64,000 nt of DNA from Candidatus Omnitrophota bacterium (GCA_016214265.1 JACROU010000037.1:3859-67858), one strand, 5' to 3'; numbered from the stretch's first letter, positions 3,037 through 53,589 are shown. Made by a program: numbers and translations. The notes: generated by a model from the letters alone, not told the origin.

Positions 3037-3828
3037 ATGGCAAAACAATTTTGTTGGGTGAAAGCGATTGGAGCATTTGCCTCAGTCGTTATTTTTTTGT
3101 TCGTAGTATCCGGCCAAGCGATGGGCGCCGAGCAGAAGAAAGAGAAATCTTACCCCTTCGAAGGTTTCGTTGGCGTTAAGGGATCAAAATATGTTGGTCA
3201 GGAAACCTGTGAAATGTGTCACGAAAAAGAAGCCCGCGAGTTTAAACTTTCCACCCATTCAAGACTCAATATCGAACATGGTCAGACAAAGGCGCAAGGA
3301 TGCGAAATGTGCCACGGCCCCGGAAGCATTCACGTGGATGCGGGCGGAGGCAAAGGAAAAGGGATTATCAACCCAAGAAAAAATCCTGAAGTTTGTTTTT
3401 CCTGCCATATGGATAAGAAAATGGAATTTCGCCTGCCGTTTCATCATCCCGTTTTGGAGGGTAAAATGGGGTGCGCGGACTGTCATTCCGCGCACGGTGC
3501 CGAAGTCAAGCCTTGGTCTGCGACGACGCTTAGCGGTATGAATGAAGCCTGCTATAAATGCCATAAGATTCAACGCGGTCCTTTTGTGTGGGAGCATGAG
3601 GCTCTTCGTGAAGGCTGCACCGCTTGTCATAAGGTTCATGGTTCGGTTAATGACAAGATGCTGCTTATTCGCGATAGCAATTTGTGCTTAAGATGTCATA
3701 CCCAAATGGATTTTCCAGTGATTGGAAGATCTAACCATGCGGCCCGAATGCCTCAAGGAACTTGCTTTAGTGCAGGGTGTCATACAGCGGTTCATGGATC
3801 GAATTTTGATGATCATCTGCGATATTAG
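3037..3828 (+). CDS. Octaheme c-type cytochrome, secreted (signal peptide)
   Basis: Seven CxxCH (CEMCH, CEMCH, CFSCH, CADCH, CYKCH, CTACH, CLRCH) plus one CxxxCH (CFSAGCH) in 263 aa. N-terminal signal/anchor. Confidence 0.85.
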   Translation: MAKQFCWVKAIGAFASVVIFLFVVSGQAMGAEQKKEKSYPFEGFVGVKGSKYVGQETCEMCHEKEAREFKLSTHSRLNIEHGQTKAQGCEMCHGPGSIHVDAGGGKGKGIINPRKNPEVCFSCHMDKKMEFRLPFHHPVLEGKMGCADCHSAHGAEVKPWSATTLSGMNEACYKCHKIQRGPFVWEHEALREGCTACHKVHGSVNDKMLLIRDSNLCLRCHTQMDFPVIGRSNHAARMPQGTCFSAGCHTAVHGSNFDDHLRY

Positions 3829-3837
3829 AGGGTTACG

Positions 3838-5919
3838 ATGAAAACTACTTTACGCATAGTGCTGGCAGAAATTTTAATCGGTGGATTGTTACTCGTACCT
3901 GGAACCGTTTCTGCGGGAGAGACCGGAACGGAAACAGCGCCTGTTACCTTTGCGCCAGTTCCAGTGCAATATGCTTTTGTGGATGGCGATATGGCCAAGT
4001 TCCAAAACCATAAATGGATGAAGGGTGATTATAACGCAGGGGCGGATAATTCTACGGCGGAGTATAAACTACCCAAAGGCGTAACGTTGTCGATGGAAGG
4101 AAGTGGTCTCGTCCCTCAAAACGATTTTGGTGCGAAAACATCTATTACCAAAGAAAACTTGGGATTTGTCAATTTTGATTTTAAACAATTCCGCCGGTAT
4201 TACGACACGACGGGCGGCGTTTACGACCGATTTGCGACGCTCAGGCACAATGAATTAGACAAAGGTCTTCACATGGATATCGGTCATTTGGGAGTGGATA
4301 CCGGAATTACTATCAAAAATTGGCCTCACTTGGGTTTCGAATACGATCGGGATTACCGGCTTGGCGCCAAATCGCGTCTTTCGTGGGGCGGTGTTACCGA
4401 AGGGGCTATTCTCCGCTACATTTTTCCTTCCTATCAGGAGATCAATCAAAGCGTGGATACTTTTGCTATCAAAGCGGATCACACCATCGGTGGATATAAA
4501 CTAAAAGCAGATCAACGATGGGAACTATTCCGGGCGGATACTTCGCGATGGGAGCAGTGGATGGCAACGACCGGAGTGGCTGCGGATAATAAAAGGCGCC
4601 TGCAGCATCAAGAACCCAGTGCTGATCTGATGACCACAACGGTTGGAGCTGAGCGGTGGTTCAAGAAAGACAAAGTGTTTGTGTCTTCCGGGTATCGTTA
4701 TGCTCAAATGAAAAATAAAGAAATCGAATCCATATTTGAATTTGATGCCGCGGGGAGGCTTTTCAATAACGCCAATGCCAAAAGTGCCCGTAATTCTATT
4801 GCTCACAATAATATGGAGGATAACAGCTGGGTTGGAAATGCTATGTGGACTCCCTGGCATTCTTTGAGTTTGATTGCCAAATTGAAAGGCGACGTGTACC
4901 GAAATTTGGGATTTTCCACAAATCCCATGGATACAAATGCCGGTGTTCCGAATGGAGGAATCGATACTACGGAGATCAGCAATCTCAGCAATAAGATTGG
5001 AAGCGTTGCCGAATCGGTATCCGTGCGTTTTACCGGAATTCCCCATACAGCGCTTTACTCAGAAATGGAATTGCAGGAAATTGGGAATCGACGATATGAA
5101 AATCGTTTGAGCGTTGCTGGTCAGGCGGCTACTAGTGCCAATGAAAACTATACCAATTTGGTAAACATAAATAGTTATCGCCAGATGTGGACTATTGGCG
5201 GAAATTTTGCGCCTTGGTATTTTGTAAATACCACGGCAGATGTTCGCATTCGCCGGGAAAACGATGATTACGATTACATCAAAAACTCACCGCCGACGGG
5301 CGGCGAGCTTTTTCGCGCGTTCTTTGATTCATTAAAAATCAACACTAACGAATTCAAAACCCGGACTACCTTAAGATTGGTGAAGTGGCTGCAGCCAGCC
5401 TTCCGTTATCAGTTTCAAGAAAAGGATTTTTATGCGTTGCCGTATCATGAGCCGGTTTATGTGACGACGCGTACGATATCAAATACTTATACATATGACC
5501 TGATGTATCAGCCATTGGCAGATTTAATGACAATGATTTCATTTTCCAGGCAAACAATTAAAACTGTAACGCCTGCTCATAATTCAGCCCGAACAATGGG
5601 AGTTCCTCCAACTTATAACACCAATGTAAACATGTGGATGTTCAGTGCGGATTACGCCTTAAGGCCCGATTTGATTCTTACGGGTAGCCTTGATTTTTCA
5701 AGAGCGCCTAATTTCAATGATTATTCCACAATCGGTTTACCGCTTGGTGTTGACTACAATCAGATAGATTTAAATTTGGGCGTGCGCTGGGCTTTGAATA
5801 AACGGATTACGTTGGAACCGAAGTACTCCTATTACCATTACAATCCGAATCAAAACGTGGAGTATGGTAAATATGATGCTCATGTAATTTCGCTTGAAAT
5901 GCTCCTACCCTGGGGTTGA
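3838..5919 (+). CDS. Predicted outer-membrane beta-barrel protein (porin-like), candidate partner of the preceding multiheme cytochrome
   Basis: Signal peptide (LLVPGTVSAGE). 693 aa with no Cys, rich in Y/T/N/G and alternating amphipathic beta-strand patterns. Starts 10 nt after the cytochrome gene. Confidence 0.5.
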   Translation: MKTTLRIVLAEILIGGLLLVPGTVSAGETGTETAPVTFAPVPVQYAFVDGDMAKFQNHKWMKGDYNAGADNSTAEYKLPKGVTLSMEGSGLVPQNDFGAKTSITKENLGFVNFDFKQFRRYYDTTGGVYDRFATLRHNELDKGLHMDIGHLGVDTGITIKNWPHLGFEYDRDYRLGAKSRLSWGGVTEGAILRYIFPSYQEINQSVDTFAIKADHTIGGYKLKADQRWELFRADTSRWEQWMATTGVAADNKRRLQHQEPSADLMTTTVGAERWFKKDKVFVSSGYRYAQMKNKEIESIFEFDAAGRLFNNANAKSARNSIAHNNMEDNSWVGNAMWTPWHSLSLIAKLKGDVYRNLGFSTNPMDTNAGVPNGGIDTTEISNLSNKIGSVAESVSVRFTGIPHTALYSEMELQEIGNRRYENRLSVAGQAATSANENYTNLVNINSYRQMWTIGGNFAPWYFVNTTADVRIRRENDDYDYIKNSPPTGGELFRAFFDSLKINTNEFKTRTTLRLVKWLQPAFRYQFQEKDFYALPYHEPVYVTTRTISNTYTYDLMYQPLADLMTMISFSRQTIKTVTPAHNSARTMGVPPTYNTNVNMWMFSADYALRPDLILTGSLDFSRAPNFNDYSTIGLPLGVDYNQIDLNLGVRWALNKRITLEPKYSYYHYNPNQNVEYGKYDAHVISLEMLLPWG

Positions 5920-5931
5920 TAATCACACCCC

Positions 5932-7725
5932 ATGAAGCCGAAATCGCAGGGCGTAAGTCCTTACTATATCTTGAGAAGCTTTCTTTTTTCCTTCTTTAAT
6001 TTCTTTGCCTCTTTAAAGCTCGCCGTGTTTCTTCTTGTCGTGTTGGGAGTGACTTTAGCTGCCGGTACTTTTATTGAATCTGCTTCAGGAACTAAAGCCG
6101 CGCAGCAGATGGTTTACCATACCGCTGCGTTTAGTTTGCTTCTTGGCGTGTTGGCGATGAATCTGGCTTTCGCCGCTTTGGCACGGCTACCCTGGCAGAA
6201 AAAGCATGTGGGATTTGTGATGACTCATGCTGGGATTATCATGATTATCTTTGGATCGTGGATGACCACTCGATTCGCGATTGACGGCCAGCTGGCGTTA
6301 GCGGAAGGGGAAAGAGGAAACCAGATTTCCGTTGATGTCCCGCTCCTCCAAATATTTAATTCCCAAACCAAGCAAAGCATTGAAGTTCCTTTTAAACTTC
6401 CACCACGGCAATGGGAGGGTAATAAACCATTTATTTTGCATGACTTTGATGATGTTGCGGTTAATCTTTTAGCTTTTTTCCCGCATTCCAAACCGGTTGA
6501 GAAAATTGTTCCCAAGGCGGGCGGTTCTTCTGCCGTAGAGTTTGATATTTTTAATGAAAATATGCGTATGGGCGGCAGGCTTCTGGAAGAACAAGGGAAA
6601 GACAGTATGGATTTGGGGCCGGCAGTGGTTCGGTTTTCTTCCCAGGAAATTCCTTTGCCTACGAAAAAATCTGCTTCTTCCGACTCTTTGGGTGATTTGA
6701 TATTCAATTATCAGGGCAAACAAAGCAGGGTGTCCGTATCGAAGGCGCTCACCAAAGAAGTTTCTATTCCCAACACACCCTTCAAAATAAAAATTAATCG
6801 TTATTTGTCTCACGCGATTGTTGAAAATAATCAGCTGGTTGACCGGGGTGAAGCGGCCGTGAATCCGGCCTGTGAATTTGTGATTCTGGGAAAGAAAACG
6901 GAAGAAAAACATACCGCCTTCGCTTTTTTTCCGGATTTTCCGACGCTTCACGGTCGCGCGCCATCACAGACCGGATTGAAAATTCATTTTGAGGCTTCCG
7001 GGTTGGAACAGGGCGCTTCTGCAAACGAACTTCGGATTATCAAGAATGCTTCCGGAAAACTTTTCTATCAGACAAAAACTCAACAAACTGTGATTCCGCC
7101 GGTCCCGGTGGAAGTGGGGAAGGAATACGCTACAGGCTGGATGCATCTGAAATTTCTGGTTAAAACATTTTTTCCTGAAGCGGAACTTAAGTCTTATTTT
7201 GAACCACTGCCTCTTTCACCCCAGGAGAAAAATCCACGGCCGGTAGTTTTGATGGGATTTCAGAAAAACGGCCAGGAAGCGAAACTTTGGCTTCAGCGCG
7301 GAGATCATCAATTTGTTTTTTCCGAAAGTGCACCGCTTCATGTCATTTACGGCGAGAAAAATATTCCTCTTGGATTTGATATTGAGCTTAAAAAATTTAT
7401 GATCGATTATTATCCCGGTTCAGAGCGGCCCGCTGCGTTTAAAAGCGCTGTCAAGTTAATCGACCCCTCAAAAGGCGTTGACCGAGAGGTTGAGATCAGC
7501 ATGAATAAGCCGCTTTCTTACCGTGGATTCAAGGTTTTTCAGTCGGGATATCAGTTGAGCGAAGGCCGGCCCAAAGTGTCCATTTTCTCCGTGGGGCGTG
7601 ACCCGGGCATTCCGGTAAAATATGCGGGCAGCATTGTCATGATTCTTGGCGTTTTATTTATGTTTTATTTGAAAAGATTTTCAAGCAGCAAGCCTCTCTA
7701 TTCAAACGAAAGTGAGAAAAAATGA
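5932..7725 (+). CDS. ccsB: Cytochrome c biogenesis protein CcsB/ResB (System II)
   Basis: N-terminal TM helices, LKLAVFLL...IESASGT..AAQQMVYHT motif, large periplasmic domain, C-terminal TM. Confidence 0.8.
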   Translation: MKPKSQGVSPYYILRSFLFSFFNFFASLKLAVFLLVVLGVTLAAGTFIESASGTKAAQQMVYHTAAFSLLLGVLAMNLAFAALARLPWQKKHVGFVMTHAGIIMIIFGSWMTTRFAIDGQLALAEGERGNQISVDVPLLQIFNSQTKQSIEVPFKLPPRQWEGNKPFILHDFDDVAVNLLAFFPHSKPVEKIVPKAGGSSAVEFDIFNENMRMGGRLLEEQGKDSMDLGPAVVRFSSQEIPLPTKKSASSDSLGDLIFNYQGKQSRVSVSKALTKEVSIPNTPFKIKINRYLSHAIVENNQLVDRGEAAVNPACEFVILGKKTEEKHTAFAFFPDFPTLHGRAPSQTGLKIHFEASGLEQGASANELRIIKNASGKLFYQTKTQQTVIPPVPVEVGKEYATGWMHLKFLVKTFFPEAELKSYFEPLPLSPQEKNPRPVVLMGFQKNGQEAKLWLQRGDHQFVFSESAPLHVIYGEKNIPLGFDIELKKFMIDYYPGSERPAAFKSAVKLIDPSKGVDREVEISMNKPLSYRGFKVFQSGYQLSEGRPKVSIFSVGRDPGIPVKYAGSIVMILGVLFMFYLKRFSSSKPLYSNESEKK

Positions 7726-9341
7726 AAATTTTTCGAGCTCTTTTGCTATTGATTCCTGTTTGTTTCTATTCTGCTCCTGCGATTTGCGGGTCTCACAGCA
7801 ATTTTGATATTAAGTCGCTCGAAAAGATGGCGGTGCAAAGCGGGGGGCGAATCAAGCCTTTCAGCAGTTTCTCAAAAGAAGTGGTTTTGTATGTAACAGG
7901 AAAAGAACGTTTCGCAGGTAAAGATGCCAACACCCTGCTTTTGGAATGGATCGCAAAACCTGAGCAGTGGGAAGCGCAGCCTCTGATTCCGGTTTCCAAT
8001 CAGGCATTAAGGACTTTTTTGGGAATTCCTGCTGAAACGAAAAGAGTCAGCCCGCATTTTCTTTCTTCGAGCCGTGTTTTTCTCGACAGCGTGGCGCAAA
8101 TCGATGCCAAACAATCGCAAGGGGAAGTGTTAAGCACGGTTGATAAAGCGGAGATTGAGCTTTATCAAAAAATGAGTCTGTTTTATGCCTCGTGCGAAGG
8201 AAAAAACTGGTCTGTTATTCCTAATCCATCTTCCCCTCATGACAAGTGGCTCTCCATCGATATGATTAAAACAGATCAGAGAATTGGCAGTCTGGCTGTT
8301 CCGCTCAATACGATGCTGGAAAGTTACCGCTCAAATGATCCGGTGAAATTCAAACAGGCGAGCGAAGAGTTTATCAATCGGTTGGGATTACAGAATTCTT
8401 TTACGCTGGAAATTCAATACAATCACTTAAGGCCTTTCGGATGGGCTTGGCATTTGTATTTGCTGGGATTTTTGATTTTTCTGATAAATTTTGTTTTAAA
8501 GAAATCGTTTTTATCATGGATTGGGGTGGGCAGCGTTATTTTGGGATTTCTGCTGCACACTTATGGATTTGTTCTGCGGTGCATTATTTCGGGCAGGCCT
8601 CCTGTTAGCAACATGTACGAGTCTGTTATCTGGGTTTCGTGGGCGGCGGTTTTGTTTGCGGTTATCCTTTTCTTCGTTTACCGCTCAACGTATGTCACTC
8701 TGGCAGCGTCGGCGATTGCTGCAGTCGGCTTAATTCTGGCAGATAGTTTGCCGGCGGTTTTGGATCCTTCGATCTCGCCTCTGGAACCGGTTTTAAGAAA
8801 TAATTTTTGGCTGACAATTCATGTTCTGACGATCACGTTAAGTTACGGCGCTTTTGCTCTGGCTCTAGCTATTGCACATATTTCTCTCCTCATGCATGTG
8901 TTTCAGACGAAAAATGAAAATCTTCTTCGCATTATCACCGAATTTCTTTACCGGGCGTTGCAAATCGGTGTTGTTCTTTTGGCGGCGGGAACTATTTTGG
9001 GTGGTGTTTGGGCAAATTACTCTTGGGGCCGGTTTTGGGGCTGGGATCCCAAAGAAACTTGGGCCTTAATCGCTCTTCTCGGATATTTGGCTATTCTTCA
9101 TTGCCGTTATGTCGGCTGGATCGGTCCGTTTGGTCTTGCTGTTGGCGCCTCAGTTGCATTTCTGGGCGTTCTGATGGCATGGTACGGTGTCAACTTTGTT
9201 CTTGCCGCGGGACTTCACAGTTATGGTTTTGCCGGCGGCGGACTTCCTTATGTCGGCGCTTTCGTCATCGCCGATTTATTGCTGGTGGCCTTACTCTCTT
9301 TTGTTTATTGGAAAAAGACGCAAATCAAAACTTCTCACTAA
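7722..9341 (+). CDS. ccsA: Cytochrome c biogenesis protein CcsA/ResC with ~240-aa N-terminal periplasmic extension
   Basis: Trp-rich heme-handling motif WGRFWGWDPKETWAL and multi-TM CcsA core. Start overlaps the ccsB stop. Confidence 0.8.
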   Translation: MKIFRALLLLIPVCFYSAPAICGSHSNFDIKSLEKMAVQSGGRIKPFSSFSKEVVLYVTGKERFAGKDANTLLLEWIAKPEQWEAQPLIPVSNQALRTFLGIPAETKRVSPHFLSSSRVFLDSVAQIDAKQSQGEVLSTVDKAEIELYQKMSLFYASCEGKNWSVIPNPSSPHDKWLSIDMIKTDQRIGSLAVPLNTMLESYRSNDPVKFKQASEEFINRLGLQNSFTLEIQYNHLRPFGWAWHLYLLGFLIFLINFVLKKSFLSWIGVGSVILGFLLHTYGFVLRCIISGRPPVSNMYESVIWVSWAAVLFAVILFFVYRSTYVTLAASAIAAVGLILADSLPAVLDPSISPLEPVLRNNFWLTIHVLTITLSYGAFALALAIAHISLLMHVFQTKNENLLRIITEFLYRALQIGVVLLAAGTILGGVWANYSWGRFWGWDPKETWALIALLGYLAILHCRYVGWIGPFGLAVGASVAFLGVLMAWYGVNFVLAAGLHSYGFAGGGLPYVGAFVIADLLLVALLSFVYWKKTQIKTSH

Positions 9342-9363
9342 AATCCAAGGTGATGTTTTGCCT

Positions 9364-10269
9364 ATGAGATGTATTGCTCCAATATCGGCACGAATTAGCG
9401 TTGTTGCCGCTTTTTTGCTTCTGCTTTTCGTCGGCGTACAAAAATTTGTGTGGGCGGTAGAAGCGCCTAAAAATAATTCGTGCGTCACGTGTCACATGGA
9501 TATTTGGGAAGAAACGAAAGACAGCATTCACTCTAGTGAGGGGATTACCTGCAACAATTGTCACGGCGGTGATCCGGCCAAAAAAGAAAAAGAACTCGCC
9601 AAAGCACCCGCCACGGGTTATATCGGAATTCCTGACAAAAAACAGATCGTGAATATGTGCGGTACCTGTCACGCCAACGTTGAGGTGATGAATTTTTATG
9701 GTATTCGTACCGATCAGCTGGCCCGGTATAAAACCAGTATGCATGGAAAAAAACTATTAATTGACGGTGATACACACGTTGCTGCTTGTGCGGATTGCCA
9801 TGGCTATCACAATATTCTTGGTATTGGCGACCCGCAAAGTTCCGTTTATCCTACAAATGTTCCAAAGACATGCAATAAGTGTCATGGCAATGAGAAATTG
9901 ATGGGGCGTTACCATCTTCCGTCAGACATCTTCAAACAATATGAAAATAGTGCCCACGGCGTTGCTTTACTCGTGAAAAACGATCTTTCTTCGGCAAACT
10001 GTGTTAGCTGTCACGGAAGTCACGGAGCCATGCCTCCTGGAGTGAAAGAAGTCAGTGACACTTGCGGCAAATGTCACATTAACGAAAAAAAATTCTTTTT
10101 GACCAGCGAACACGCCAAGTTGGCTGAAGGCAGCAAGTTTTCAGAATGTATATCCTGCCATGGTTTTCATGGCATTCAACACCCCACAATTCAATTGTTC
10201 AGTACGGCTTGCTCGAAATGTCATAATGTGAAAAGCTTGGCGGCGCAAAGAGCGCTTTCAATGCAATAA
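9364..10269 (+). CDS. Nonaheme c-type cytochrome, N-terminally membrane-anchored
   Basis: Nine CxxCH motifs (CVTCH, CNNCH, CGTCH, CADCH, CNKCH, CVSCH, CGKCH, CISCH, CSKCH). Likely ATG at 9364 (MRCIAPISARISVVAAFLLLLFVG). The 9187 ORF start is an upstream extension overlapping ccsA. Confidence 0.8.
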   Translation: MRCIAPISARISVVAAFLLLLFVGVQKFVWAVEAPKNNSCVTCHMDIWEETKDSIHSSEGITCNNCHGGDPAKKEKELAKAPATGYIGIPDKKQIVNMCGTCHANVEVMNFYGIRTDQLARYKTSMHGKKLLIDGDTHVAACADCHGYHNILGIGDPQSSVYPTNVPKTCNKCHGNEKLMGRYHLPSDIFKQYENSAHGVALLVKNDLSSANCVSCHGSHGAMPPGVKEVSDTCGKCHINEKKFFLTSEHAKLAEGSKFSECISCHGFHGIQHPTIQLFSTACSKCHNVKSLAAQRALSMQ

Positions 10270-10272
10270 CTG

Positions 10273-10638
10273 TTGTTAAAATCCCAAACGGAAGTTAGCG
10301 AGACAAAAGCCGTAGTGAAAGCAGCGGCGAATCAGGGTCTTTTTGTTGATGAAGAAAAAGCCGCTTTTGATGAAGCCAATACCAGTTTGATTGAGATGGG
10401 AATAACTCAGCATTCGCTTTCTGTCGGTGAGTTGTCAAAGCTTTCAAATAAAGTTGAAGCTACAACCGAACAAATCCGAAAAGGTATAAATCATAAGTAT
10501 CAAGGTTTGAAGTGGCGGAAAATTGCGCTTATTATTGTGTGGATTTTTGTCCTATTGATGGTTGTGGCGTTGTGGACTAAATATAAACGTTTAAAGTTTA
10601 TCAGGGATGAGAGAAAGAAAAAACACGACGATGAGTGA
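10273..10638 (+). CDS. Small hypothetical protein with C-terminal TM helix
   Basis: ORF has a non-ATG start, a single hydrophobic C-terminal segment (IALIIVWIFVLLMVVALW), and sits between the cytochrome and Rieske genes. Start uncertain. Confidence 0.3.
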   Translation: MLKSQTEVSETKAVVKAAANQGLFVDEEKAAFDEANTSLIEMGITQHSLSVGELSKLSNKVEATTEQIRKGINHKYQGLKWRKIALIIVWIFVLLMVVALWTKYKRLKFIRDERKKKHDDE

Positions 10639-11101
10639 TTCAGGTAAAGATCAAAATCTGGAGAAGCCTTTGTACGAAAAGTCTTTGTCGAGACGCGATT
10701 TTATCAGCTGGATTATCAAGGGCGGATTATTTATCACGTTTTTGAGCATGCTATTGCCCGCATTGGAATATATTTGGCCGGTGACTCGCCGTGGTCCAGT
10801 GGGCGGGGCTAATGATGTTGGTCGCGCCGATGACATTCCCGTTGGCAGCGCAAAAAAAGTAGATGTGTCCGGGACTCCGCTCATTTTAATTCACACACCG
10901 CAAGGATTTAATGCCTTCTCGGCGATTTGCACTCACCTTGGTTGTCTGGTGGGGTGGGATTCTCAGAAGCAATTAATTGCCTGCCCCTGTCATGCGGGAT
11001 TATTTGATACAACAGGCAGAGTGGTGGCGGGCCCGCCGCCAAGACCTTTGGCTTCTTATCCGGTGAATGTTGTGGATGGAAAAATTTTTATTAAACTCTA
11101 A
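10607..11101 (+). CDS. petA: Rieske [2Fe-2S] iron-sulfur subunit with twin-arginine signal (likely true start at 10631)
   Basis: SRRDFI Tat motif plus TM. Rieske boxes CTHLGC and CPCHAG. Confidence 0.85.
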   Translation: MRERKNTTMSDSGKDQNLEKPLYEKSLSRRDFISWIIKGGLFITFLSMLLPALEYIWPVTRRGPVGGANDVGRADDIPVGSAKKVDVSGTPLILIHTPQGFNAFSAICTHLGCLVGWDSQKQLIACPCHAGLFDTTGRVVAGPPPRPLASYPVNVVDGKIFIKL

Positions 11102-11124
11102 AACTCATTTTCAAAAAAATCCTC

Positions 11125-12294
11125 ATGATCAAACAATTTATTCAAAAGTGGTTTGAAGAGCGGTTTGACGTAGAGCAAATCAAACAGCCGCTAAAAAAGC
11201 AGATTGAGAAACCGCTTCCCCCGAACGTGGGTTGGCTTCACACACTGGGCAGTATGTCGTTGATCCTTTTTGTCAGTCAAGTCCTCACAGGGATTTTGCT
11301 GCTAATTTACTATCGTCCAACGGTCAACGAGGCGTTTGAAAGTGTGAAGTTCATCATGTCCAAAGCCTACATGGGATGGCTGTACCGGCAAATTCATGCC
11401 TGGGGCTCCAATCTCATGATCTTGATCGTATTTCTGCATATGCTGCGGACTTATATCATGGGATCTTTCAAGAAACCACGCGAGTTAACCTGGGTTTTTG
11501 GCGTTCTGCTTTTCTTTATAACACTTACTTTTGGTTTTACCGGATATCTTCTTCCCTGGAATCAGTTGTCATATTGGGCAACAACGGTGGGGACGGAACT
11601 GGCTGGGGGGGTTCCCTGGATTGGCTTGTTTATTAAAACCTTGCTGAGGGGAGGCCAGTCGGTGGGCGGTGAGACGCTTTCCCGTTTCTTTGTTGTGCAT
11701 GTCATCATATTGCCTTGGGCGCTTTTTTTCCTGATCATCATTCACATTTTTCTTGTTCGCTTTCAGGGAATTTCAACCATGGAGCCGGTTGGTGAGGAAA
11801 AGAAAGTTAAGCCCGATGAAGGAATTCCATTCTATCCCCATCATGCATTAAAAGAAGGCGTTGTGTTTTATCTTTTAATGGCCGTCCTGATTACGCTATC
11901 GATTTTAGTTCCTTTTGAGTTGGGAGAAAAAGCTGATCCCCTCCAAACGCCGGCTGGTATCAAACCCGAATGGTATTTTTTGCCCATGTATCAGGTGCTG
12001 AAATATTTCCCCAAAATGATAGGTATCTTTGTCGTTGGTTTGGCGCCGCTATTTTTGCTGTTCTGGGCTTTTTTGGATAACAGTAAACAACGCAATCCTC
12101 TTAAAAGACCCTTTTCGATAACGTTTTGCATTCTTGTCCTTATATCTCTGGTTGTGTTCGGAGTGATGGGGGCGTATTCAGAAACTAAAGTAACTTTATT
12201 TGGCAAAACTTACGATGTGGATGTGTACGGCGTTCCTCATCTGGCCGCCGCAAATATTATCGATCAAATTAATCCCGAGAAATCAACGACATGA
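11125..12294 (+). CDS. petB: Cytochrome b (fused b6/subunit IV-like, 389 aa)
   Basis: Canonical cytochrome b motifs (YMGWLYRQIHAWGSNLMILIVFLHMLRTY; LPWNQLSYWATTV). Multi-TM. Confidence 0.85.
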   Translation: MIKQFIQKWFEERFDVEQIKQPLKKQIEKPLPPNVGWLHTLGSMSLILFVSQVLTGILLLIYYRPTVNEAFESVKFIMSKAYMGWLYRQIHAWGSNLMILIVFLHMLRTYIMGSFKKPRELTWVFGVLLFFITLTFGFTGYLLPWNQLSYWATTVGTELAGGVPWIGLFIKTLLRGGQSVGGETLSRFFVVHVIILPWALFFLIIIHIFLVRFQGISTMEPVGEEKKVKPDEGIPFYPHHALKEGVVFYLLMAVLITLSILVPFELGEKADPLQTPAGIKPEWYFLPMYQVLKYFPKMIGIFVVGLAPLFLLFWAFLDNSKQRNPLKRPFSITFCILVLISLVVFGVMGAYSETKVTLFGKTYDVDVYGVPHLAAANIIDQINPEKSTT

Positions 12295-13790
12295 GTGAAG
12301 AAAAGAAACGAAATATTTATTTTCGAAACTGGATGAGTGTTATCGGCGGAATTCTCTCCGTAATTTTGTTTGCCGTTATTTTATTTCTGTTCGTTTTAGA
12401 CTTCCTTGATAAAGGGTTGAACCCTTATTTGGGAATTTTTACCTACGTTGTTGTGCCGGTTTTTTTGGTGATCAGTCTTTTGATGATTCCCATCGGCGCC
12501 TGGCGCGAGCGTGCACGATTTAAAAAACTTGGCCATGTTCAGCAATTTCCCCAGATTGATTTTAATAATCCCACACACCAGAAGATAGCATTTGCGGCTT
12601 GGGGCGTAGTTACGCTGTTTCTTCTTTTTTCAATGGTGGGTGCGTACCGGGCTTACGAGTTTTCGGAGTCTGTCACTTTTTGCGGGCGCACCTGTCATGG
12701 CGTGATGGGACCGGAATATATTGCGTACAAAAATTCCCCGCACGCGCATGTAGCCTGTGTGGAATGCCACATTGGGCCTGGGATTGACTGGTATATCCGT
12801 TCAAAACCTTCCGGAGCCCGTCAGGCTTATTTAACTCTTACAAACCGTTTTAATCGTCCTATTCCAACACCGATAAAGACGCTTCGCCCTGCTCGCGAAA
12901 CTTGTGAGCATTGCCATTGGCCCGAGCAGTTTTACGGGGATAAAGAAGTAAATCATAAATACTTTCTGCCTGATGAAACGAACACAGAATGGAAGGCTCG
13001 ATTACTTGTCCATGTGGGCGGTGCCAAGCCTCGTTATGGGCAGGGTGAAGGCATTCACTGGCATATGAAAGTTAATAATCAGGTTTATTACATCGCCACG
13101 GATGAGAAGAAAGAAAACATTCCATGGGTGCGGCAGATCAATCCTGATGGTAAAGAAGAGATATTTGTTGAAGAAAAATCCGGATACAGCGCTTCGAATC
13201 CGCCAAAAGGTGAAATCAAATTAATGGATTGTATGGATTGTCACAATCGCCCAAGCCATCACTTCAAAGCGCCATCGGAGTCCGTAAATGAAGCGATGGG
13301 CTTTGGACAGATTGACAGTTCACTGCCTTATATAAAACGTGAGGCGGTGAAAGCCTTGGTGGGGAATTACAAATCGAACTCAGAAGCAAAAGCCGAAATT
13401 CGCAAACGTCTCGAGACTTTTTACCGGGAAAAATACCCCGCAATTTGGGAGTCGAAAGGTAAAGAATTGCAGAGCAGTATTGACCGGGTGATTAATATTT
13501 ATAATGTCAACTTTTTCCCAGAAATGAAAACGTCATGGAAGGTGCATCCCAACAATATTGGGCATTTCATCTCTACGGGATGTTTTCGCTGCCACGATGA
13601 CAAACACAAAACTGCGGAAGGTAAAGTGATCCGGAAAGATTGTGCTATGTGTCATGCGATTATTGAGCAGGGCAAACCGGAGTTACTGGAAACTGCTGTG
13701 GCCGGGGTTGAATTCAAGCATCCCGAGGATATTGGCGAGGAATGGAAAGAGACGAAATGTTCTGATTGCCATACTGGCGAACTGGCTTAG
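12291..13790 (+). CDS. Membrane-anchored multiheme c-type cytochrome (about 7 hemes), c-type subunit of the Rieske/cyt b complex
   Basis: Two N-terminal TM helices. CxxCH x6 (CVECH, CEHCH, CMDCH, CFRCH, CAMCH, CSDCH) plus CGRTCH. Start overlaps the cyt b stop. Confidence 0.8.
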   Translation: MSEEKKRNIYFRNWMSVIGGILSVILFAVILFLFVLDFLDKGLNPYLGIFTYVVVPVFLVISLLMIPIGAWRERARFKKLGHVQQFPQIDFNNPTHQKIAFAAWGVVTLFLLFSMVGAYRAYEFSESVTFCGRTCHGVMGPEYIAYKNSPHAHVACVECHIGPGIDWYIRSKPSGARQAYLTLTNRFNRPIPTPIKTLRPARETCEHCHWPEQFYGDKEVNHKYFLPDETNTEWKARLLVHVGGAKPRYGQGEGIHWHMKVNNQVYYIATDEKKENIPWVRQINPDGKEEIFVEEKSGYSASNPPKGEIKLMDCMDCHNRPSHHFKAPSESVNEAMGFGQIDSSLPYIKREAVKALVGNYKSNSEAKAEIRKRLETFYREKYPAIWESKGKELQSSIDRVINIYNVNFFPEMKTSWKVHPNNIGHFISTGCFRCHDDKHKTAEGKVIRKDCAMCHAIIEQGKPELLETAVAGVEFKHPEDIGEEWKETKCSDCHTGELA

Positions 13791-13798
13791 CGCAGTTA

Positions 13799-13814
13799 TG
13801 TGACCTTCGTCACA
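13799..13814. promoter_or_regulatory. CRP-family-like binding site TGTGACCTTCGTCACA (TGTGA-N6-TCACA)
   Basis: Perfect CRP consensus half-sites. Extended 24-mer matches the site at 53012 at 21/24 positions, differing only within the spacer (shared ATGTGA plus CGTCACAGTTTT). About 150 bp upstream of the tetraheme cytochrome gene. Confidence 0.4.
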
Positions 13815-13967
13815 GTTTTAAACCGGGTTCTCTCGCTATAATTCGCTCTTGTCTTTGGAATTAGAGAACATTCCCATCGAATAGATTATTCGGTCGCACG
13901 TCTTATTAATTACAAAAGTTTTCGTTTTTCTATCAAAGTAGGCGAAGCGCAAACAAGGAGGATAGCG

Positions 13968-14522
13968 ATGAAGTCAGGTTATTTGTTGCCACAATTATTA
14001 AGGAGCTTTCTGGTTTTAACTGTTTTTGCTTTTTTGGCCACCCCCGTAGCTTTTGCCGCTGATCATGAATATGTCGGGGCGGCAAAATGCGGAATTTGCC
14101 ATAAGAAACCAGAGCAGGGCGAACAATATCGTATTTGGCAGGAATCAAAACATGCCAAGGCTTTTGAAGCACTGGGAACTCCCGAGGCAAAAGAAGTCGG
14201 CGCTAAACTGGGAATTGATGATCCTCAAAAGAGCGGAAAATGTTTGAAATGTCATTCCACGGCTTATGGACATACAGAACAAGTTGTTACGGATGCGATC
14301 CCGGTTGAAGAAGGCGTTTCTTGCGAAACATGCCATGGTGCCGGAAAAGATTATATGAAAAAGAGCGTCATGGAAGATGTTAACGCCGCGAAAGAAGCGG
14401 GATTAATTATTCCGGATGAGGCGACTTGCACAAAATGCCACAATTCGGAGAGCCCGACGTTCAAGCCGTTTGATTACAAAGAACGTTATGAGAAAATTAA
14501 ACATCCTAAACCCAATAAATAA
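13968..14522 (+). CDS. Periplasmic tetraheme c-type cytochrome
   Basis: Signal peptide. Four CxxCH (CGICH, CLKCH, CETCH, CTKCH). Strong RBS AAGGAGG upstream. Confidence 0.8.
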   Translation: MKSGYLLPQLLRSFLVLTVFAFLATPVAFAADHEYVGAAKCGICHKKPEQGEQYRIWQESKHAKAFEALGTPEAKEVGAKLGIDDPQKSGKCLKCHSTAYGHTEQVVTDAIPVEEGVSCETCHGAGKDYMKKSVMEDVNAAKEAGLIIPDEATCTKCHNSESPTFKPFDYKERYEKIKHPKPNK

Positions 14523-14704
14523 AATTTAACTAACGATACGTTTTCCTCCGTAAACGCCTCCTGGCGAAGAGTACAGAAATGAAAAGACTTCGTTTCTGCA
14601 AACTTCGTTCAGGGGGCGTTTTTATTTGTGATTGTGTAACCCGTGTCATTGGCACAAGTTGTAATCCTGGGGTACTATTTAGGTGGATTGAGTGGGAGGA
14701 TGGC

Positions 14705-15628
14705 ATGACAGAAGAAATGGAGTATTTTCAAAAATACCGTTCGCTCTATGAAGAGGCGGTGTTGCGGTATGTTTGTACCCGCTGCATTGACTTTGGAAAT
14801 GATGGCGTTTGTCATTCTGAAGATCCAAAAGGGTGTGCGGTATTCCGCTATTTGCCCGAATTGATAGCAATTGCAAGACGTATTCACGAACCCAGTATTG
14901 TCCCTTACGTTGATGCCGTGCGTCAAACTGTGTGTGTGCATTGCCGGGCCTTAACCCCTGAGGGGATGTGCCCATTGCGTGCCAAATTAGATTGCGGATT
15001 GGACCGCTACTTAATTCTTGTTATCGAAGCAATGGGGAAAGTGGATGCAATTTTGAAGAATGAGGAAAAAGACAGAGATAGATTGAGTAATGAATCGAAA
15101 AACATCACGTCACTTTTGATCCAACGTTGCCGGAGGGTGTTGGATAGAATTTTTTCATTGGATGAAATGCTGAGAGGATTTTGTTATTCAGGAGAGACGG
15201 CTTATCAGGAAAATTTAATACAAATGAATGAAGTTTCAAAATTTTTCTCAAGATTTTTCTCAAGAGAATGGAACAAGCATATGACGATTGAAAAGGAAAT
15301 ATTGTTTCCGTTTGCGATTGCACATTTGCCGCAAATAAGGCCGGCTATAGATTTTCTGGAATCAAAACACGCTGAATACAGAAAAAAACTTCAAGAATTA
15401 AGAACGCGATATGATGATTTTAAATGGGCAGTAGGTGATGAAGGGAGGAAAAAAGCGGTAGAAAAATTTCAAAATCTCGGAATTTCTTTGGCCAAGCTAT
15501 TCAATGAGTACATTGAGATTGAAGCAAAGAATGTGTATAAAGTGTTGGATCGCGAGCTTTCAGAAGATGACAAATTGGAGCTTATGAGAAAAATTTATCT
15601 CCGCAATGTCAGTCGTAGAGCGGCATAA
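14705..15628 (+). CDS. Cys-rich N-terminal domain / hemerythrin-like C-terminal domain protein
   Basis: GGAGG RBS before the ATG at 14705. N-terminus has CTRC...C...CVHC...C. C-terminus resembles a hemerythrin HHE cation-binding domain and is paralogous to 52196..52720 (shared EILFP[FY] and YKV[LI]DREL). Confidence 0.4.
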   Translation: MTEEMEYFQKYRSLYEEAVLRYVCTRCIDFGNDGVCHSEDPKGCAVFRYLPELIAIARRIHEPSIVPYVDAVRQTVCVHCRALTPEGMCPLRAKLDCGLDRYLILVIEAMGKVDAILKNEEKDRDRLSNESKNITSLLIQRCRRVLDRIFSLDEMLRGFCYSGETAYQENLIQMNEVSKFFSRFFSREWNKHMTIEKEILFPFAIAHLPQIRPAIDFLESKHAEYRKKLQELRTRYDDFKWAVGDEGRKKAVEKFQNLGISLAKLFNEYIEIEAKNVYKVLDRELSEDDKLELMRKIYLRNVSRRAA

Positions 15629-50374: not shown

Positions 50375-51049
50375 ATGGCGCTGAAATTAAAAGATATTCC
50401 CTTATTTCATGGTCTTTCTGAAAGCGAACTTGCAGTAGTAAGACTCTGCTTGAAAGAGAAAACGTTCCAAAAAGGCGAGCTTCTATTTAATGAAGGGAAA
50501 TCCTGCGAGCGGGTGTTCATCGTTCAGCAGGGTCGCGTGAAACTGTACCGGATCGCCTCGTCGGGCCGCGAGCAAATTCTTGAAACCTTGGGGCCCGGTG
50601 ATACATGCGCCTGCAATCCCGGCGCCCAGGTTTGGTGTTGTACGACAACTGCGGAAGCGGTGACGCCGTGCAAGGTGTGGTTTTTGTCGCGGGAAGATTA
50701 TGTGAAAATGGTGCAAACCAATTCAAAAGTCAGCCAGGCCCTCAACCGGCTTTTTGCGGACCGTCTGAAAGCCTTCAGTTCACTTATCGAGGAAGTTTCG
50801 CTTAAAGACGTCAAAAAACGCCTCATCAAATTTCTTTTAGAGATGCACGCTGAGCGGAAAAGAAAATACGGGCAGGGTGACGCGATGTTTATTCCTTTCA
50901 CGCGCGAAGAAATTGCCCAAAGAATCGGTTCGGCCCGTGAGACAGTGGTGCGTTATCTTATGCAGTTGAAACGTTGTAAGCTCATCGATTTAAAACCGCA
51001 TCAAATTATCATTTGCGATCAGCACGGCCTCGAAAAACTCCTTCAGTAA
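50375..51049 (+). CDS. Crp/Fnr-family transcriptional regulator (cNMP-binding + C-terminal HTH)
   Basis: LFHGLSESELAVV...FNEGKSCERVFIVQQGRVKLY cNMP fold. C-terminal HTH REEIAQRIGSARETVVRYL. Confidence 0.8.
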   Translation: MALKLKDIPLFHGLSESELAVVRLCLKEKTFQKGELLFNEGKSCERVFIVQQGRVKLYRIASSGREQILETLGPGDTCACNPGAQVWCCTTTAEAVTPCKVWFLSREDYVKMVQTNSKVSQALNRLFADRLKAFSSLIEEVSLKDVKKRLIKFLLEMHAERKRKYGQGDAMFIPFTREEIAQRIGSARETVVRYLMQLKRCKLIDLKPHQIIICDQHGLEKLLQ

Positions 51050-51202
51050 TTGTCTTTTTTTTCGCATAACCAGTTCTGAAGGAGAAATCTCGCCGTGAGT
51101 TCTCCTTCGGAGTTGCTCGCAAGCCTTAGATTGTGACCCTGGTCACTGCTTAAAACGAAAGCTTTGTGTATCTTTGCCACATCAAAACAGGAGGTTGTTA
51201 TG

Positions 51203-51373
51203 GCTACTCCAAAAATCCAGAAATCGATGCCTCAAACAAAAAAAGAAAAGAAGATCTCTCGCGAAGAAATTGCCCGGCTGGCCTTCGAGCTCTACGAGAA
51301 AGACGGCAGGGAAGAGGGTAAGGATCTTGAGCATTGGTTTGAAGCCGAAAGGATTTTGAGGTCGCATCAATAA
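51203..51373 (+). CDS. DUF2934-like small protein
   Basis: AGGAGG RBS. EEIARLAFELYEKDGREEGKDLEHWFEAERIL matches the DUF2934 signature. Confidence 0.4.
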   Translation, partial: ATPKIQKSMPQTKKEKKISREEIARLAFELYEKDGREEGKDLEHWFEAERILRSHQ

Positions 51374-51382
51374 GCAAATAAC

Positions 51383-52171
51383 ATGACCATTCCGCTTCAA
51401 AATTCGGTTGTCTATGGCCCCATACAATCCCGCCGACTGGGGAATTCTTTGGGCATCAATGTGCTTCCGACTGACATTAAATTTTGCCTTTCAAGCTGCA
51501 TCTATTGCCAATATGGCTGGACTGACTTGAGCGCGATGCAAAAAGTGAAACTTCATCCTGCCACAGAGCTGGTGAAGGAAATCGAGGACAGTTTTAAAAA
51601 AATATTTTCAACCGGCACCATCATTGACTCCATCACTTTTTCCGGCAACGGTGAGTCCACGCTGCATCCCGAATTCGGAACTTTAGTCCGGGAAGTTAAG
51701 CGATTGCGCAATCACTATTTTCCTGCCATCCCCGTTTCAATCCTTTCAGATTCTTCCCGGGTTTATCTTCCCGAAGTGCGTGAAGCCCTGGAGAAATTGG
51801 ACGAGCGGTATATGAAACTAGACACGGGCGATCAGGAAATGTATCAGAAAATAAACAATCCGGTTGTAAAGGCGGATTGGAACCGGATCGTCGACGGGCT
51901 CAGCCGTCTTTCTCAGGTGACATTGCAGAGTCTTTTTCTATCAGAGCCTGTAGATAATTCAAGCGGGGAAGCTCTTAACCGCTGGCTTGCAGCGCTCGCA
52001 CGTATTCATCCTGTCGGCCTTCAAATTTATACTGTATACCGTGATACGGCGGATCCGAAAGTAAAGTCGGTGACGTCGAAACGGCTGTCTGAAATCGCGC
52101 ATTTGGCCTGTCAAGTAACGGACTTGAGTACGGTGACTGCGGTCACAGATACTTTTTTGGAATTGATGTAG
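51383..52171 (+). CDS. Radical SAM domain protein
   Basis: CLSSCIYCQ (Cx3Cx2C) preceded by a GPIQSRRLGNSLGIN block. Confidence 0.55.
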   Translation: MTIPLQNSVVYGPIQSRRLGNSLGINVLPTDIKFCLSSCIYCQYGWTDLSAMQKVKLHPATELVKEIEDSFKKIFSTGTIIDSITFSGNGESTLHPEFGTLVREVKRLRNHYFPAIPVSILSDSSRVYLPEVREALEKLDERYMKLDTGDQEMYQKINNPVVKADWNRIVDGLSRLSQVTLQSLFLSEPVDNSSGEALNRWLAALARIHPVGLQIYTVYRDTADPKVKSVTSKRLSEIAHLACQVTDLSTVTAVTDTFLELM

Positions 52172-52195
52172 CTTTTTTCCGAGAGGTCGGACGAG

Positions 52196-52720
52196 ATGGC
52201 GCACAAGAAAAAAGAATTTAATGTGGTTCAATTACTCGAAAAAAGTCACGATGAGACTTTTCAGAGGACCGATCAATTTCGTGATCTGTTAATCAATCTG
52301 CGTTACGAAGGCAAGTTGTCACTGGGCAAAAACCTAAAGCAGGCCGAAGATGTGCTTAAGTTTTTTAGCCAGGAGCATGCCGGGCATATGCAGTTCGAAG
52401 AAGAAATCCTTTTCCCTTATTTAAAATCTCACGTGCCGAAACTTGAGCCGGTAATTTATCTTCTTCATGCGGAACATTTGGATTTTAAGAACAACCTGAA
52501 AAATTTTGAGAATCTCATCGGTGAGCTTTCCAAAGAAAGGCAGGAAAGCGACCGCGCCGTCATTTTTGAAAAAATCAGAGAAACAGGGGCTTATCTTATT
52601 TTCCTTCTCAGAAGTCACAATCAGTCTGAAAGTGAAAGCGTGTATAAAGTGATCGATCGTGAACTCCATGACGATGAGAAGGAAGAGCTTGCTGAAAAAA
52701 TAGAGAAGTTTCTGCCGTAA
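52196..52720 (+). CDS. Hemerythrin-like (HHE cation-binding) domain protein
   Basis: H/E-rich pairs (EHAGHMQFEEEILFPYL; HAEHLDF). Paralogous to the C-terminus of 14705..15628. Confidence 0.55.
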   Translation: MAHKKKEFNVVQLLEKSHDETFQRTDQFRDLLINLRYEGKLSLGKNLKQAEDVLKFFSQEHAGHMQFEEEILFPYLKSHVPKLEPVIYLLHAEHLDFKNNLKNFENLIGELSKERQESDRAVIFEKIRETGAYLIFLLRSHNQSESESVYKVIDRELHDDEKEELAEKIEKFLP

Positions 52721-52738: not shown

Positions 52739-52981
52739 ATGAAGCAAACTTACAAATGGCTGCCCGTAATAAAAAAAGAAAATTGTACGGGCTGTGGTTT
52801 ATGCGTTGAAGCATGTACGCCAAAATGTTTAGAGGTTGTCGATGGTGTTGTTGTTCTCACGCTTCCGATTCTTTGCGGAAGTGAGGAGCATTGCATTTCA
52901 CCTTGTAACTATGAAGCCATTGAGATGAAATGGGTGCCTGCGCCCGGACGTGACTATATCGGTTTGTGGCACGAAAAATAG
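52739..52981 (+). CDS. Small ferredoxin-like [4Fe-4S] protein
   Basis: CTGCGLCVEACTP Cx2Cx2Cx3CP motif plus additional Cys. Confidence 0.5.
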   Translation: MKQTYKWLPVIKKENCTGCGLCVEACTPKCLEVVDGVVVLTLPILCGSEEHCISPCNYEAIEMKWVPAPGRDYIGLWHEK

Positions 52982-53011: not shown

Positions 53012-53027
53012 TGTGATCACCGTCACA
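53012..53027. promoter_or_regulatory. CRP-family-like site TGTGATCACCGTCACA upstream of rrf2-nosZ
   Basis: TGTGA-N6-TCACA. Extended match ATGTGANNNNCGTCACAGTTTT with the site at 13799. About 95 bp upstream of the Rrf2 start. Confidence 0.4.
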
Positions 53028-53121
53028 GTTTTTGATCTTCTTGAAATGTATGATAATAATGTGGATGTTAGTATCCATAATTTGAACGTTTATTCGTTTC
53101 TGTCTGAAGGGAATCTGAATT

Positions 53122-53589
53122 ATGTTCCGCCTGTATTCAAAAGGCTGTGAGTACGTAATCCGCGCATTGGCGCTTGTGAATGCCTCAAAAGAGGGGCGGT
53201 GTTTTTCTGTTAAGGATATTTGCAGAAAGGCCCGGTTGCCGGAATGGTATACCCGGAAGGTTTTTCAATCGTTGGTTCGAAACGGTTATTTAGAGGCTTC
53301 GCGCGGCCCGGGGGGTGGTTACACGTTAAAAGTCCACCCCAGTAAAATTTCGCTGTTAAATATGATCCGCGCAGTTGATGGTAAGGATGTTTTAGATCAA
53401 TGCATGATGAGTTCGGGAAAATGCAAGAACAAGAAATCCTGTGTGATGCATAACAAGTGGATTAGGATAAAAGAAAGTGTGGTTCGGGAATTAAAGTCGG
53501 TTACGGTTCAAGATCTAATGGATTTAACTTCTGGCAGAAGCAAACATGTTTCAACATTAAAAAGGAGGCATGAATCAAATGGGCATTAA
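53122..53589 (+). CDS. Rrf2-family transcriptional regulator (NsrR/IscR-like, 3-Cys)
   Basis: N-terminal wHTH (CEYVIRALALV...VKDICRKARLPEWYTRKVFQSLVRNGYLEASRGPGGGYTL) plus three C-terminal Cys. Confidence 0.8.
   Translation: MFRLYSKGCEYVIRALALVNASKEGRCFSVKDICRKARLPEWYTRKVFQSLVRNGYLEASRGPGGGYTLKVHPSKISLLNMIRAVDGKDVLDQCMMSSGKCKNKKSCVMHNKWIRIKESVVRELKSVTVQDLMDLTSGRSKHVSTLKRRHESNGH

Follow-up and report, generated by a model that had tools for sequence, protein, structure and literature searches.

Do two matching palindromes in a 64 kb stretch of a Candidatus Omnitrophota genome (GCA_016214265.1, JACROU010000037.1:3859-67858) belong to one regulatory switch, and if so, which protein operates it, in which direction, and for which genes? 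A preliminary description of this stretch (hereafter the window, a single strand and our whole view of the host genome) had reported two perfect copies of the CRP/FNR-superfamily palindrome TGTGA-N6-TCACA, site 1 at 13799-13814 and site 2 at 53012-53027, one before a tetrahaem cytochrome gene and the other before rrf2-nosZ. It called them operators, noted a Crp/Fnr regulator gene at 50375-51049, and proposed a regulon linking a “cytochrome wire” to nitrous oxide (N2O) reduction. We arrive at a model, to which we give a probability of roughly 0.8, in which the regulator encoded at 50375 would bind not two but four predicted sites in the window, as an activator.

The two palindromes are as described. 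They are the only perfect matches in the window, where 0.02 are expected from dinucleotide-preserving shuffles and none of 100 shuffles contained two. Their 24-mer contexts, TTATGTGACCTTCGTCACAGTTTT for site 1 and TTATGTGATCACCGTCACAGTTTT for site 2, are identical at 21 of 24 positions, with all three differences inside the N6 spacer. Site 1 lies 9 nt past the stop codon of gene 12291-13790 and 154 nt ahead of the ATG of the tetrahaem cytochrome gene; site 2 lies 31 nt after the preceding stop codon and 95 nt ahead of the rrf2 ATG (53122). Two, however, is an undercount. A search allowing one mismatch returned three extra matches, at 3208, 51132 and 52132. The match at 3208 was rejected as a site, as it falls inside a cytochrome gene whose CxxCH codons (TGT...TGTCAC) mimic the motif; such codons also dominate the two-mismatch matches, which are at chance level (26 versus 21.6 expected) and were likewise discarded. 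The matches at 51132 and 52132 are sites that had been overlooked. Site 3 begins 83 nt past the regulator stop codon, ahead of a small open reading frame (ORF) for a DUF2934 protein and a radical SAM gene, and site 4 lies 49 nt ahead of haemerythrin gene 52196, which a ferredoxin gene follows. A 50-column position matrix, trained on related loci only, ranked sites 3, 4, 2 and 1 at the top of the window (18.9-26.5, compared with a maximum of 15.4 in 50 random windows) and found no fifth site. All four lie on the + strand, and the promoters of sites 3, 4 and 2 are spaced by 1000 and 880 bp, each in front of its own short cassette (DUF2934 with radical SAM, haemerythrin with ferredoxin, and rrf2-nos, respectively).

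Related genomes repeat this pattern. Homologues of the regulator occur by the hundred in metagenomes at 65-82% identity, the named ones all from Omnitrophica, and with a 25-homologue alignment we retrieved 76 loci covering ±10 kb around the regulator gene, which is on the + strand in each. Most are labelled Omnitrophota; the rest are unclassified metagenome-assembled genomes (MAGs), some labelled Planctomycetia/Planctomycetales, and one each of Eisenbacteria, Auribacterota and Clostridia. In 1.04 Mb of regulator-bearing loci we found 42 perfect sites, against 0.57 expected from Markov shuffles, an excess of about 74-fold. Of the 68 loci that extend far enough downstream, 57 have a site just after the regulator gene, the place taken by site 3 in the window; its distance from the regulator stop codon is about 0-130 nt in 55 of them, and +247 and +345 in one each. 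The rrf2-nosZ site is itself kept in L001 (CGTGACGCGCGTCACAG at 3239, 127 nt before rrf2) and L002 (AGTGACGTACGTCACAG at 12234, 97 nt before rrf2). The preliminary description had named two grounds for doubting the motif, occurrence at random positions and absence from orthologous promoters; the sites are far above shuffle expectation, and the rrf2-nosZ promoters of L001 and L002 carry them. We conclude that the palindromes are a real, conserved cis-regulatory element rather than a chance match.

The element has a direction. Its family consensus is TGTGAC-N4-GTCACA followed by GAC, and with the downstream hexamer reads TGTGAC-N4-GTCACAGAC-N18-TAnnnT. Across 44 perfect sites, TCACA is followed by G in 40, then by A in 33, then by C in 23, while the mirror position upstream is C in only seven; because this GAC extension lacks a mirror counterpart, the element is oriented. 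We considered GAC as part of a longer palindrome read by the regulator and ruled this out, there being no GTC on the mirror side in the 44 sites and no enrichment of it in the metagenome matches listed (see below). Counting from the first T of the site, a TAnnnT hexamer starts at offset 37 in 27 of the 44 sites and at 36-38 in 36, with essentially none at the mirrored offset, and all four window sites fit at 37-38. Setting the hexamer at -12 to -7 puts the middle of the site near -41.5 (for site 1, some 42.5 bp ahead of the predicted start) and the GAC at -33, -32 and -31, where it coincides with the GAC of a TTGACA -35 box with a 17-bp spacer. The -35 under the site is CAGACn in the best cases; window sites 1 and 2, which keep the G alone, have CAGTTT. 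CRP- and FNR-activated promoters of class II have this layout, in which the activator overlaps a degenerate -35; with predicted transcription starts, the sites have the same form, centred near -41.5 over a poor -35.

This geometry also accounts for part of the shared flanks of sites 1 and 2. The G that follows TCACA corresponds to the family-wide -33 position, a promoter feature and not part of regulator recognition; the C before GTCACA is common in the family, in about half of sites; and the upstream TTA and downstream TTTT are not family-wide. From family column frequencies, the two would match at all 11 shared non-core positions with a probability of about 3e-5, a post hoc figure. The two promoters may share descent, or their flanks may act as weak terminators for the preceding genes.

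The label “operator” is, on this analysis, misleading. Were the sites repressor operators, the Crp/Fnr protein or another factor would occlude the -35 and keep the operons off until a signal arrived. The site does overlap the -35, a position from which Crp/Fnr proteins can repress, and negative control of a clade II nosZ by a Crp/Fnr regulator was inferred in Nitrosophilus (PMC11539149). We consider repression unlikely because the distance to the -10 is fixed and the -35 is weak: rigid phasing (37 ± 1 nt in 36 of 44 sites) is needed for activation, not for occlusion, and poor -35 hexamers are typical of activator-dependent promoters. The rrf2-nosZ promoter of L023, where the site is missing, has a consensus TTGACA -35 and a TACTAT -10 instead, and activation is favoured because this site-less promoter has the -35 that the others lack. 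In addition, the β4-β5 loop of the regulator, SGREQ, is largely invariant in the 25-homologue alignment, and we take it to resemble activating region 3 of FNR (QGDEQ). We infer that the sites are class II activator sites and that the factor bound there would activate transcription.

Which factor binds? Domain matches agree with the preliminary description that 50375-51049 encodes a Crp/Fnr protein (PF00027, 71.5 bits; PF13545, 59.6; PF00325, 27.5; all above cut-offs), and the top Foldseek matches of its structural model are all members of this superfamily. The predicted fold is generic and gave no subfamily assignment; NCBIfam equivalog scores are far under their cut-offs (FixK, 65 versus 300 bits; CRP, 64 versus 266; FNR, 59 versus 228), and identity to any solved structure is 28% or less. 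A helix R-E-T-[VI]-x-R, invariant in the 25 aligned homologues, aligns with R180-E181-T-V-G-R185 of CRP, making R188, E189 and R193 the equivalents of R180, E181 and R185, the residues with which CRP reads TGTGA (PMC2677863, PMC1274295). E181 is a specificity determinant across the Crp/Fnr family (PMC1274295), and the CRP mutants E181V, E181L and E181K were originally selected on sites with A or T at position 7 (PMC2677863). Three relatives, L050, L051 and L055, have the helix R-V-T-V-A-R or R-I-T-I-A-R, with V or I at the E181 equivalent, and the site after their regulator gene reads TGTATC-N4-GATACA (TATATC in L055). The base-pair change falls at position 7 of the half-site of CRP; the extension (AGA here) and the -10 spacing are unchanged. 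The 46 kb of these three loci contain no GTGAC-type sites, whereas 60 R-E-T loci contain 97 GTGAY-N4-RTCAC sites versus four of the variant type. This natural E-to-V/I swap with its matching DNA change reads as a field example of the E181/position 7 rule of CRP. Because of gene-site adjacency, the helix residues, and the co-variation of helix and site, the 50375 protein is very probably the cognate factor.

An unbiased pattern scan of metagenomes for the full consensus with its -10 set this pairing in a wider context. It matched at least 120 stretches, at least 110 of them distinct, and among the matches listed the cysteine-type Omnitrophota regulator was on three stretches. Many others were GC-rich soil contigs, with a distant Crp/Fnr gene ending just upstream or a multihaem cytochrome gene next; these distant proteins are 22-33% identical to the regulator and have an R-E-x-x-x-R helix and a different sensor sequence. 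GTC on the mirror side of GAC was not enriched among the 110 distinct matches listed. We therefore ruled out an Omnitrophota-specific motif, since most of the matches listed belong to other lineages and accompany different Crp/Fnr subfamilies. CRP-type (R-E-R) members of the superfamily appear to share this DNA element and its promoter layout as a general feature. The switch is of a familiar type, and the novelty lies in its lineage, its regulon and its sensor domain. We also observed in soil metagenomes that a near-identical promoter, TGTGACGGCAGTCACAGAC-ttggaattagccttgcat-TAGTTT, recurs ahead of a multihaem cytochrome gene (contigs L089, L102, L105, L186, L078, L114, L118, L157, L179 and L196), whose products are about 30-36% identical to the Omnitrophota cytochromes. 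CRP-type class II control of multihaem cytochromes seems, from these contigs, to recur in at least one other lineage.

The same matches lend something to a second alternative, that the sites are real CRP-type activator sites bound by another Crp/Fnr paralogue whose gene lies beyond the window, such as a true cyclic AMP (cAMP)-CRP, with the cysteine-rich protein just one of its targets. R-E-x-x-x-R helices accompany the identical motif and geometry in several unrelated subfamilies, and only 64 kb of the genome is in view. We find this less likely still than repression: the site directly follows the regulator gene in 57 of 68 genomes, helix and adjacent site change together in L050, L051 and L055, and 50375 is the only Crp/Fnr gene found in the window. 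Least likely of all is intrinsic termination at sites 1 and 2 (a hairpin of 6 bp closing a 4-nt loop, then GUUUU), as the close stop codons, the short T run and the flagging of the site 4 hairpin as terminator-like in a consensus scan might suggest, for that scan returned nothing at site 1 or site 2, the hairpins are weak (-6.8 and -5.5 kcal/mol; z -1.8 and -0.25 versus shuffles), the T run is just 4-5 bases, the site 4 hairpin precedes the stop codon of its gene, and across the 44 sites the stem is invariant, not co-varying, the usual 3' flank is GAC, not Ts, and the -10 sits at a fixed distance. We rejected termination as the main function on the weak folds and the lack of a consensus-scan match at sites 1 and 2; T-run variants may have a secondary, weak terminator role.

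With the 50375 protein as predicted activator, its closest described parallels are three. Escherichia coli CRP at class II promoters (galP1, synthetic CC(-41.5)) shares the 16-bp TGTGA-N6-TCACA site, the R180/E181/R185 triad, the fold, and, by prediction, the site centre at -41.5, overlapping the -35 by two bases. Recognition helix and site are those of CRP proper, but the Omnitrophota regulator lacks the cAMP ligands and has four invariant cysteines, and its targets are respiratory and N-oxide genes, unlike the catabolic operons of CRP. HcpR of Desulfovibrio, a Crp/Fnr regulator of anaerobes, has the consensus wTGTGAnnnnnnTCACAw and retains R180/E181 (Rodionov et al., 2005; PMC1274295), and ferredoxin, haemerythrin and cytochrome c genes are frequent members of HcpR regulons (PMC1274295). 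The regulator shares this CRP-like consensus and R180/E181, and HcpR too is usually encoded next to its main target. The defining HcpR target, hcp, did not, however, turn up behind sites in any of the 76 loci (±10 kb, annotated clusters), and the CxC...C signature is not a described feature of HcpR, the Desulfovibrio protein being compared by description only; the Porphyromonas gingivalis HcpR structure (9day) is 19% identical to the regulator.

FNR, DNR/NnrR and NssR/NssA-C likewise activate anaerobic respiration or nos genes from class II sites, and FNR senses O2 through a cysteine-ligated [4Fe-4S] cluster. These proteins recognise TTGAT-N4-ATCAA or TTGA-N6-TCAA, unlike the TGTGA-type sites here. 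The recognition helix of FNR is E-x-x-S-R, and its cysteines lie in an N-terminal extension (C20, C23, C29) plus C122, whereas those of the regulator are in the β-roll pocket; the 25-homologue alignment contains no cysteine before residue 25. The regulator does not have the FNR combination of N-terminal cysteine cluster plus C122, E-x-x-S-R helix and TTGAT-N4-ATCAA site. In Wolinella, NssA, NssB and NssC control clade II nosZ (PMC11539149).

It is the sensor domain that sets the regulator apart. Invariant in the 25-homologue alignment are C44, C78, C80 and C89, together with N81-P82-G83 and W87, and three of the four cysteines lie in or beside the phosphate-binding cassette. CRP E72 aligns with C80 in both of our alignments and I70 with C78; R82 aligns with C89 (phmmer, against Mycobacterium tuberculosis CRP) or with A84 (hhalign). 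The cAMP-binding residues of CRP proper (G71, E72, R82, S83) are not retained as a set, and because C80 replaces E72 and R82 is not conserved, the regulator is predicted to be unable to bind cAMP in the fashion of CRP. The AlphaFold model is of moderate confidence (mean predicted local distance difference test, pLDDT, 75.8), falling to 58 over residues 81-90, the cysteine loop, as might be expected of a loop that needs a cofactor. Most likely, we infer, the four cysteines bind a metal or iron-sulfur centre where the nucleotide pocket used to be, one that would report O2, redox state or nitric oxide (NO). More speculatively, and with doubts that outweigh our confidence, we suggest a novel class of Crp/Fnr sensor, in which the cyclic-nucleotide pocket itself would have turned into a four-cysteine metal or Fe-S site. 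With O2 or NO as its signal, this site would drive anaerobic respiration throughout Omnitrophota, clade II N2O reduction included, with the adjacent haemerythrin as a partner buffering the signal or protecting the cluster. Three of the metagenome contigs (L100, L140, L170) encode another R-E-x-x-x-R subfamily whose gene ends just upstream of a site and whose phosphate-binding-cassette region (G-E/G-S-C-I-L/I-T/S-S-S-C-L-L-G) contains two conserved cysteines; on this evidence, nucleotide pockets with cysteine substitutions may extend beyond the Omnitrophota family.

Several points count against our model. The case for binding, transcription starts and expression is built entirely from comparative data. 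A site that overlaps the -35 could equally serve repression, and the L023 rrf2-nosZ promoter does without a site. Site 1 has no informative orthologous promoter, the sole relative found being a twin with 100% identity over the part compared. L050, L051 and L055 look like one lineage, so their co-variation counts as a single event. Unrelated Crp/Fnr subfamilies in metagenomes keep company with the same motif and geometry, and an R-E-R paralogue elsewhere in the genome, beyond the 64 kb in view, could share or own the sites. As for the sensor, the alignment of C89 with R82 depends on the method, and the cysteine cluster as a cofactor site comes from alignment only, with a structural model of moderate quality.

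In the model that we favour, a dimeric 50375 activator would read DNA as CRP does, through R188/E189/R193, and bind the four window sites, touching RNA polymerase directly and replacing the poor -35. When active it would switch on the tetrahaem cytochrome and the Cys-rich/haemerythrin protein from site 1, the DUF2934 and radical SAM proteins from site 3, haemerythrin and ferredoxin from site 4, and rrf2-nosZ-nosDFY from site 2, where the promoter probably also has an Rrf2 operator at the transcription start. The features concerned are collected in Table 1.

Table 1. Predicted sites, promoter elements and genes of the regulon in the window, with the variant sites of three relatives.
Feature	Position	Strand	Description
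Site 1	13799-13814	+	TGTGACCTTCGTCACA; perfect CRP-type palindrome; matrix score 18.9
-10 box, site 1 promoter	13837-13842	+	TATAAT, offset 38 from site start
Tetrahaem cytochrome	13968-14522	+	First gene behind site 1; periplasmic, signal peptide, 4 CxxCH, cytochrome c554 family
Cys-rich/haemerythrin fusion	14579-15628	+	Second gene behind site 1; 349 aa, N-terminal Cys-rich and C-terminal HHE
Crp/Fnr regulator	50375-51049	+	224 aa; helix R188-E189-T-V-V-R193; cysteines C44, C78, C80, C89
Site 3	51132-51147	+	TGTGACCCTGGTCACT; 1 mismatch; matrix score 26.5
-10 box, site 3 promoter	51169-51174	+	TATCTT, offset 37
DUF2934 protein	51201-51373	+	57 aa; first ORF behind site 3
Radical SAM protein	51383-52171	+	262 aa; behind site 3
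Site 4	52132-52147	+	GGTGACTGCGGTCACA; 1 mismatch; within 3' end of radical SAM gene; matrix score 25.3
-10 box, site 4 promoter	52169-52174	+	TAGCTT, offset 37; overlaps TAG stop of radical SAM gene
Haemerythrin HHE protein	52196-52720	+	174 aa; behind site 4
4Fe-4S ferredoxin	52739-52981	+	80 aa; probably co-transcribed with haemerythrin gene
Site 2	53012-53027	+	TGTGATCACCGTCACA; perfect palindrome in rrf2-nosZ promoter; matrix score 23.2
-10 box, site 2 promoter	53049-53054	+	TATGAT, offset 37
Second palindrome	53062-53077	+	TGGATGTTAGTATCCA; at predicted transcription start of rrf2-nosZ
Rrf2-family regulator	53122-53589	+	First gene of nos operon
NosZ, Sec-dependent clade II	53570-55597	+	TIGR04246, 853.9 bits versus cut-off 625
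nos accessory genes	55601-59193	+	NosD-NosF fusion (920 aa) and NosY-like ABC-2 permease; probably same transcript
Variant sites	L050 4205-4220; L051 10294-10309; L055 2078-2093		After regulator gene

The family-wide regulon has a different centre from the one first proposed. Counting as promoter-type those sites with at most one mismatch and a -10 at offset 36-38 (n = 80 in relatives) and clustering the genes downstream, we found a haemerythrin HHE protein of about 175 residues as the first gene at 42 of the 80 sites and within the first four genes at 48; homologues of the window haemerythrin 52196 occur in 52 of the 76 loci. Haemerythrin, rather than nos or cytochromes, is the predicted core conserved target across the phylum. 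Other genes recurring behind sites encode multihaem cytochromes (14 members), HemA (glutamyl-tRNA reductase), radical SAM/SPASM proteins, Rieske/cytochrome b, Rrf2-NosZ, a tRNA_edit-domain protein, a cytidylate-kinase-like protein and the small unannotated proteins c1 and c3, as well as a cytochrome c with an EB_dh protein followed by a protein of about 1150 residues that is NarG/Nxr-like by eye only. By these gene assignments the regulon centres on anaerobic respiration and haem, in the manner of FNR or HcpR regulons. Four loci have an additional site upstream of the regulator gene (cluster c21), which suggests autoregulation. The small proteins c1 and c3 (each about 80 residues, without a Pfam match and with E-x-x-H-like motifs) regularly follow the haemerythrin gene, as genes 2-3 after the site in L009, L011, L012, L021, L034, L035, L044, L045, L047 and others; the window has no copy. 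The radical SAM gene has an orthologue in L001 (61% identity) behind a site at 2376 and a distant homologue in L074 (40%) behind a site at 396. Gene order in L001 matches that of the window (regulator, site, radical SAM, site, rrf2-nosZ), except that the window has in addition the haemerythrin-ferredoxin cassette with its own site, an arrangement that suggests modular insertion of site-plus-gene units.

The proposed link between the cytochrome wire and N2O reduction stands in part. Site 1 ties the tetrahaem cytochrome gene to rrf2-nosZ, but the large cluster at 3037-13790 has no site here. This cluster comprises nine genes, including multihaem, outer-membrane-barrel, Rieske and cytochrome b proteins, and ends in 12291-13790, which encodes an NrfH-like multihaem protein of 499 residues. 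Orthologous operons in L059 (6633-16354) and L036 (450-9869) begin with a regulator site, plus haemerythrin and HemA. Ahead of 3037 the matrix scan found none, the only trace being AGTGAC at 2919, a decayed half-site whose -10 spacing is wrong. Orthologues of the tetrahaem cytochrome (57-67% identity; L059, L036, L057, L069) are distal genes of tight 9-10-gene operons headed by a site, whereas in the window the cluster end is rearranged, so that the tetrahaem gene stands behind the 499-aa gene with a site of its own. Lying downstream of the cluster, site 1 can drive only 13968 and 14579. Because the cluster has no site here, unlike the relatives' operons, the regulon of cytochrome wire and N2O reduction is, by predicted sites, true of the clade and only partly of this genome. 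Both domains of the 349-residue fusion encoded at 14579 exist as separate site-driven genes in L031 (7239) and L005 (10682). In this protein an unannotated Cys-rich domain, in which CxxC-like motifs are numerous, spans roughly residues 37-167. Scanning metagenomes with the full 349-aa protein gave no match, and the protein database contained only a 99% twin of the whole protein. An Rfam scan of the window, including the 119-nt leader of 13968, returned no matches.

The rrf2-nosZ promoter contains a further element. A second palindrome, TGGAT-N6-ATCCA (more broadly ATGGA-N8-TCCAT), is the sole perfect match to this pattern in the window; every one of the four rrf2-nosZ promoters that we compared keeps its TGGAT and TCCA unchanged, at or directly following the -10, with copies at about 3290-3310 in L001 and about 12285-12300 in L002, and two copies in L023 (12456-12473 and 12483-12500). 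This palindrome, TGGATGTTAGTATCCA, is a likely candidate operator of the Rrf2 repressor, in which case nosZ would be under dual control, by Crp/Fnr activation and Rrf2 repression. NosD and NosF are usually separate proteins. Here a single 920-residue ORF (55601-58363) has an N-terminal region of about 370 residues without a Pfam match, a NosD β-helix (377-562) and a NosF-type ABC ATPase (702-841).

Omnitrophota are abundant in groundwater and sediments and almost wholly uncultured, and clade II nosZ is the N2O sink of many non-denitrifiers. We found no Omnitrophota regulon described in the literature searched, and how clade II (Sec-type) nosZ is regulated is known for just a handful of Campylobacterota (PMC11539149). 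The locus offers a testable wiring diagram, with one regulator, a 16-bp site of defined geometry, four promoters and a haemerythrin core target predicted throughout the phylum. A simple pattern scan could predict members of the regulon in any Omnitrophota MAG, and the former cAMP pocket, with its lining of cysteines, would repay biochemical study.

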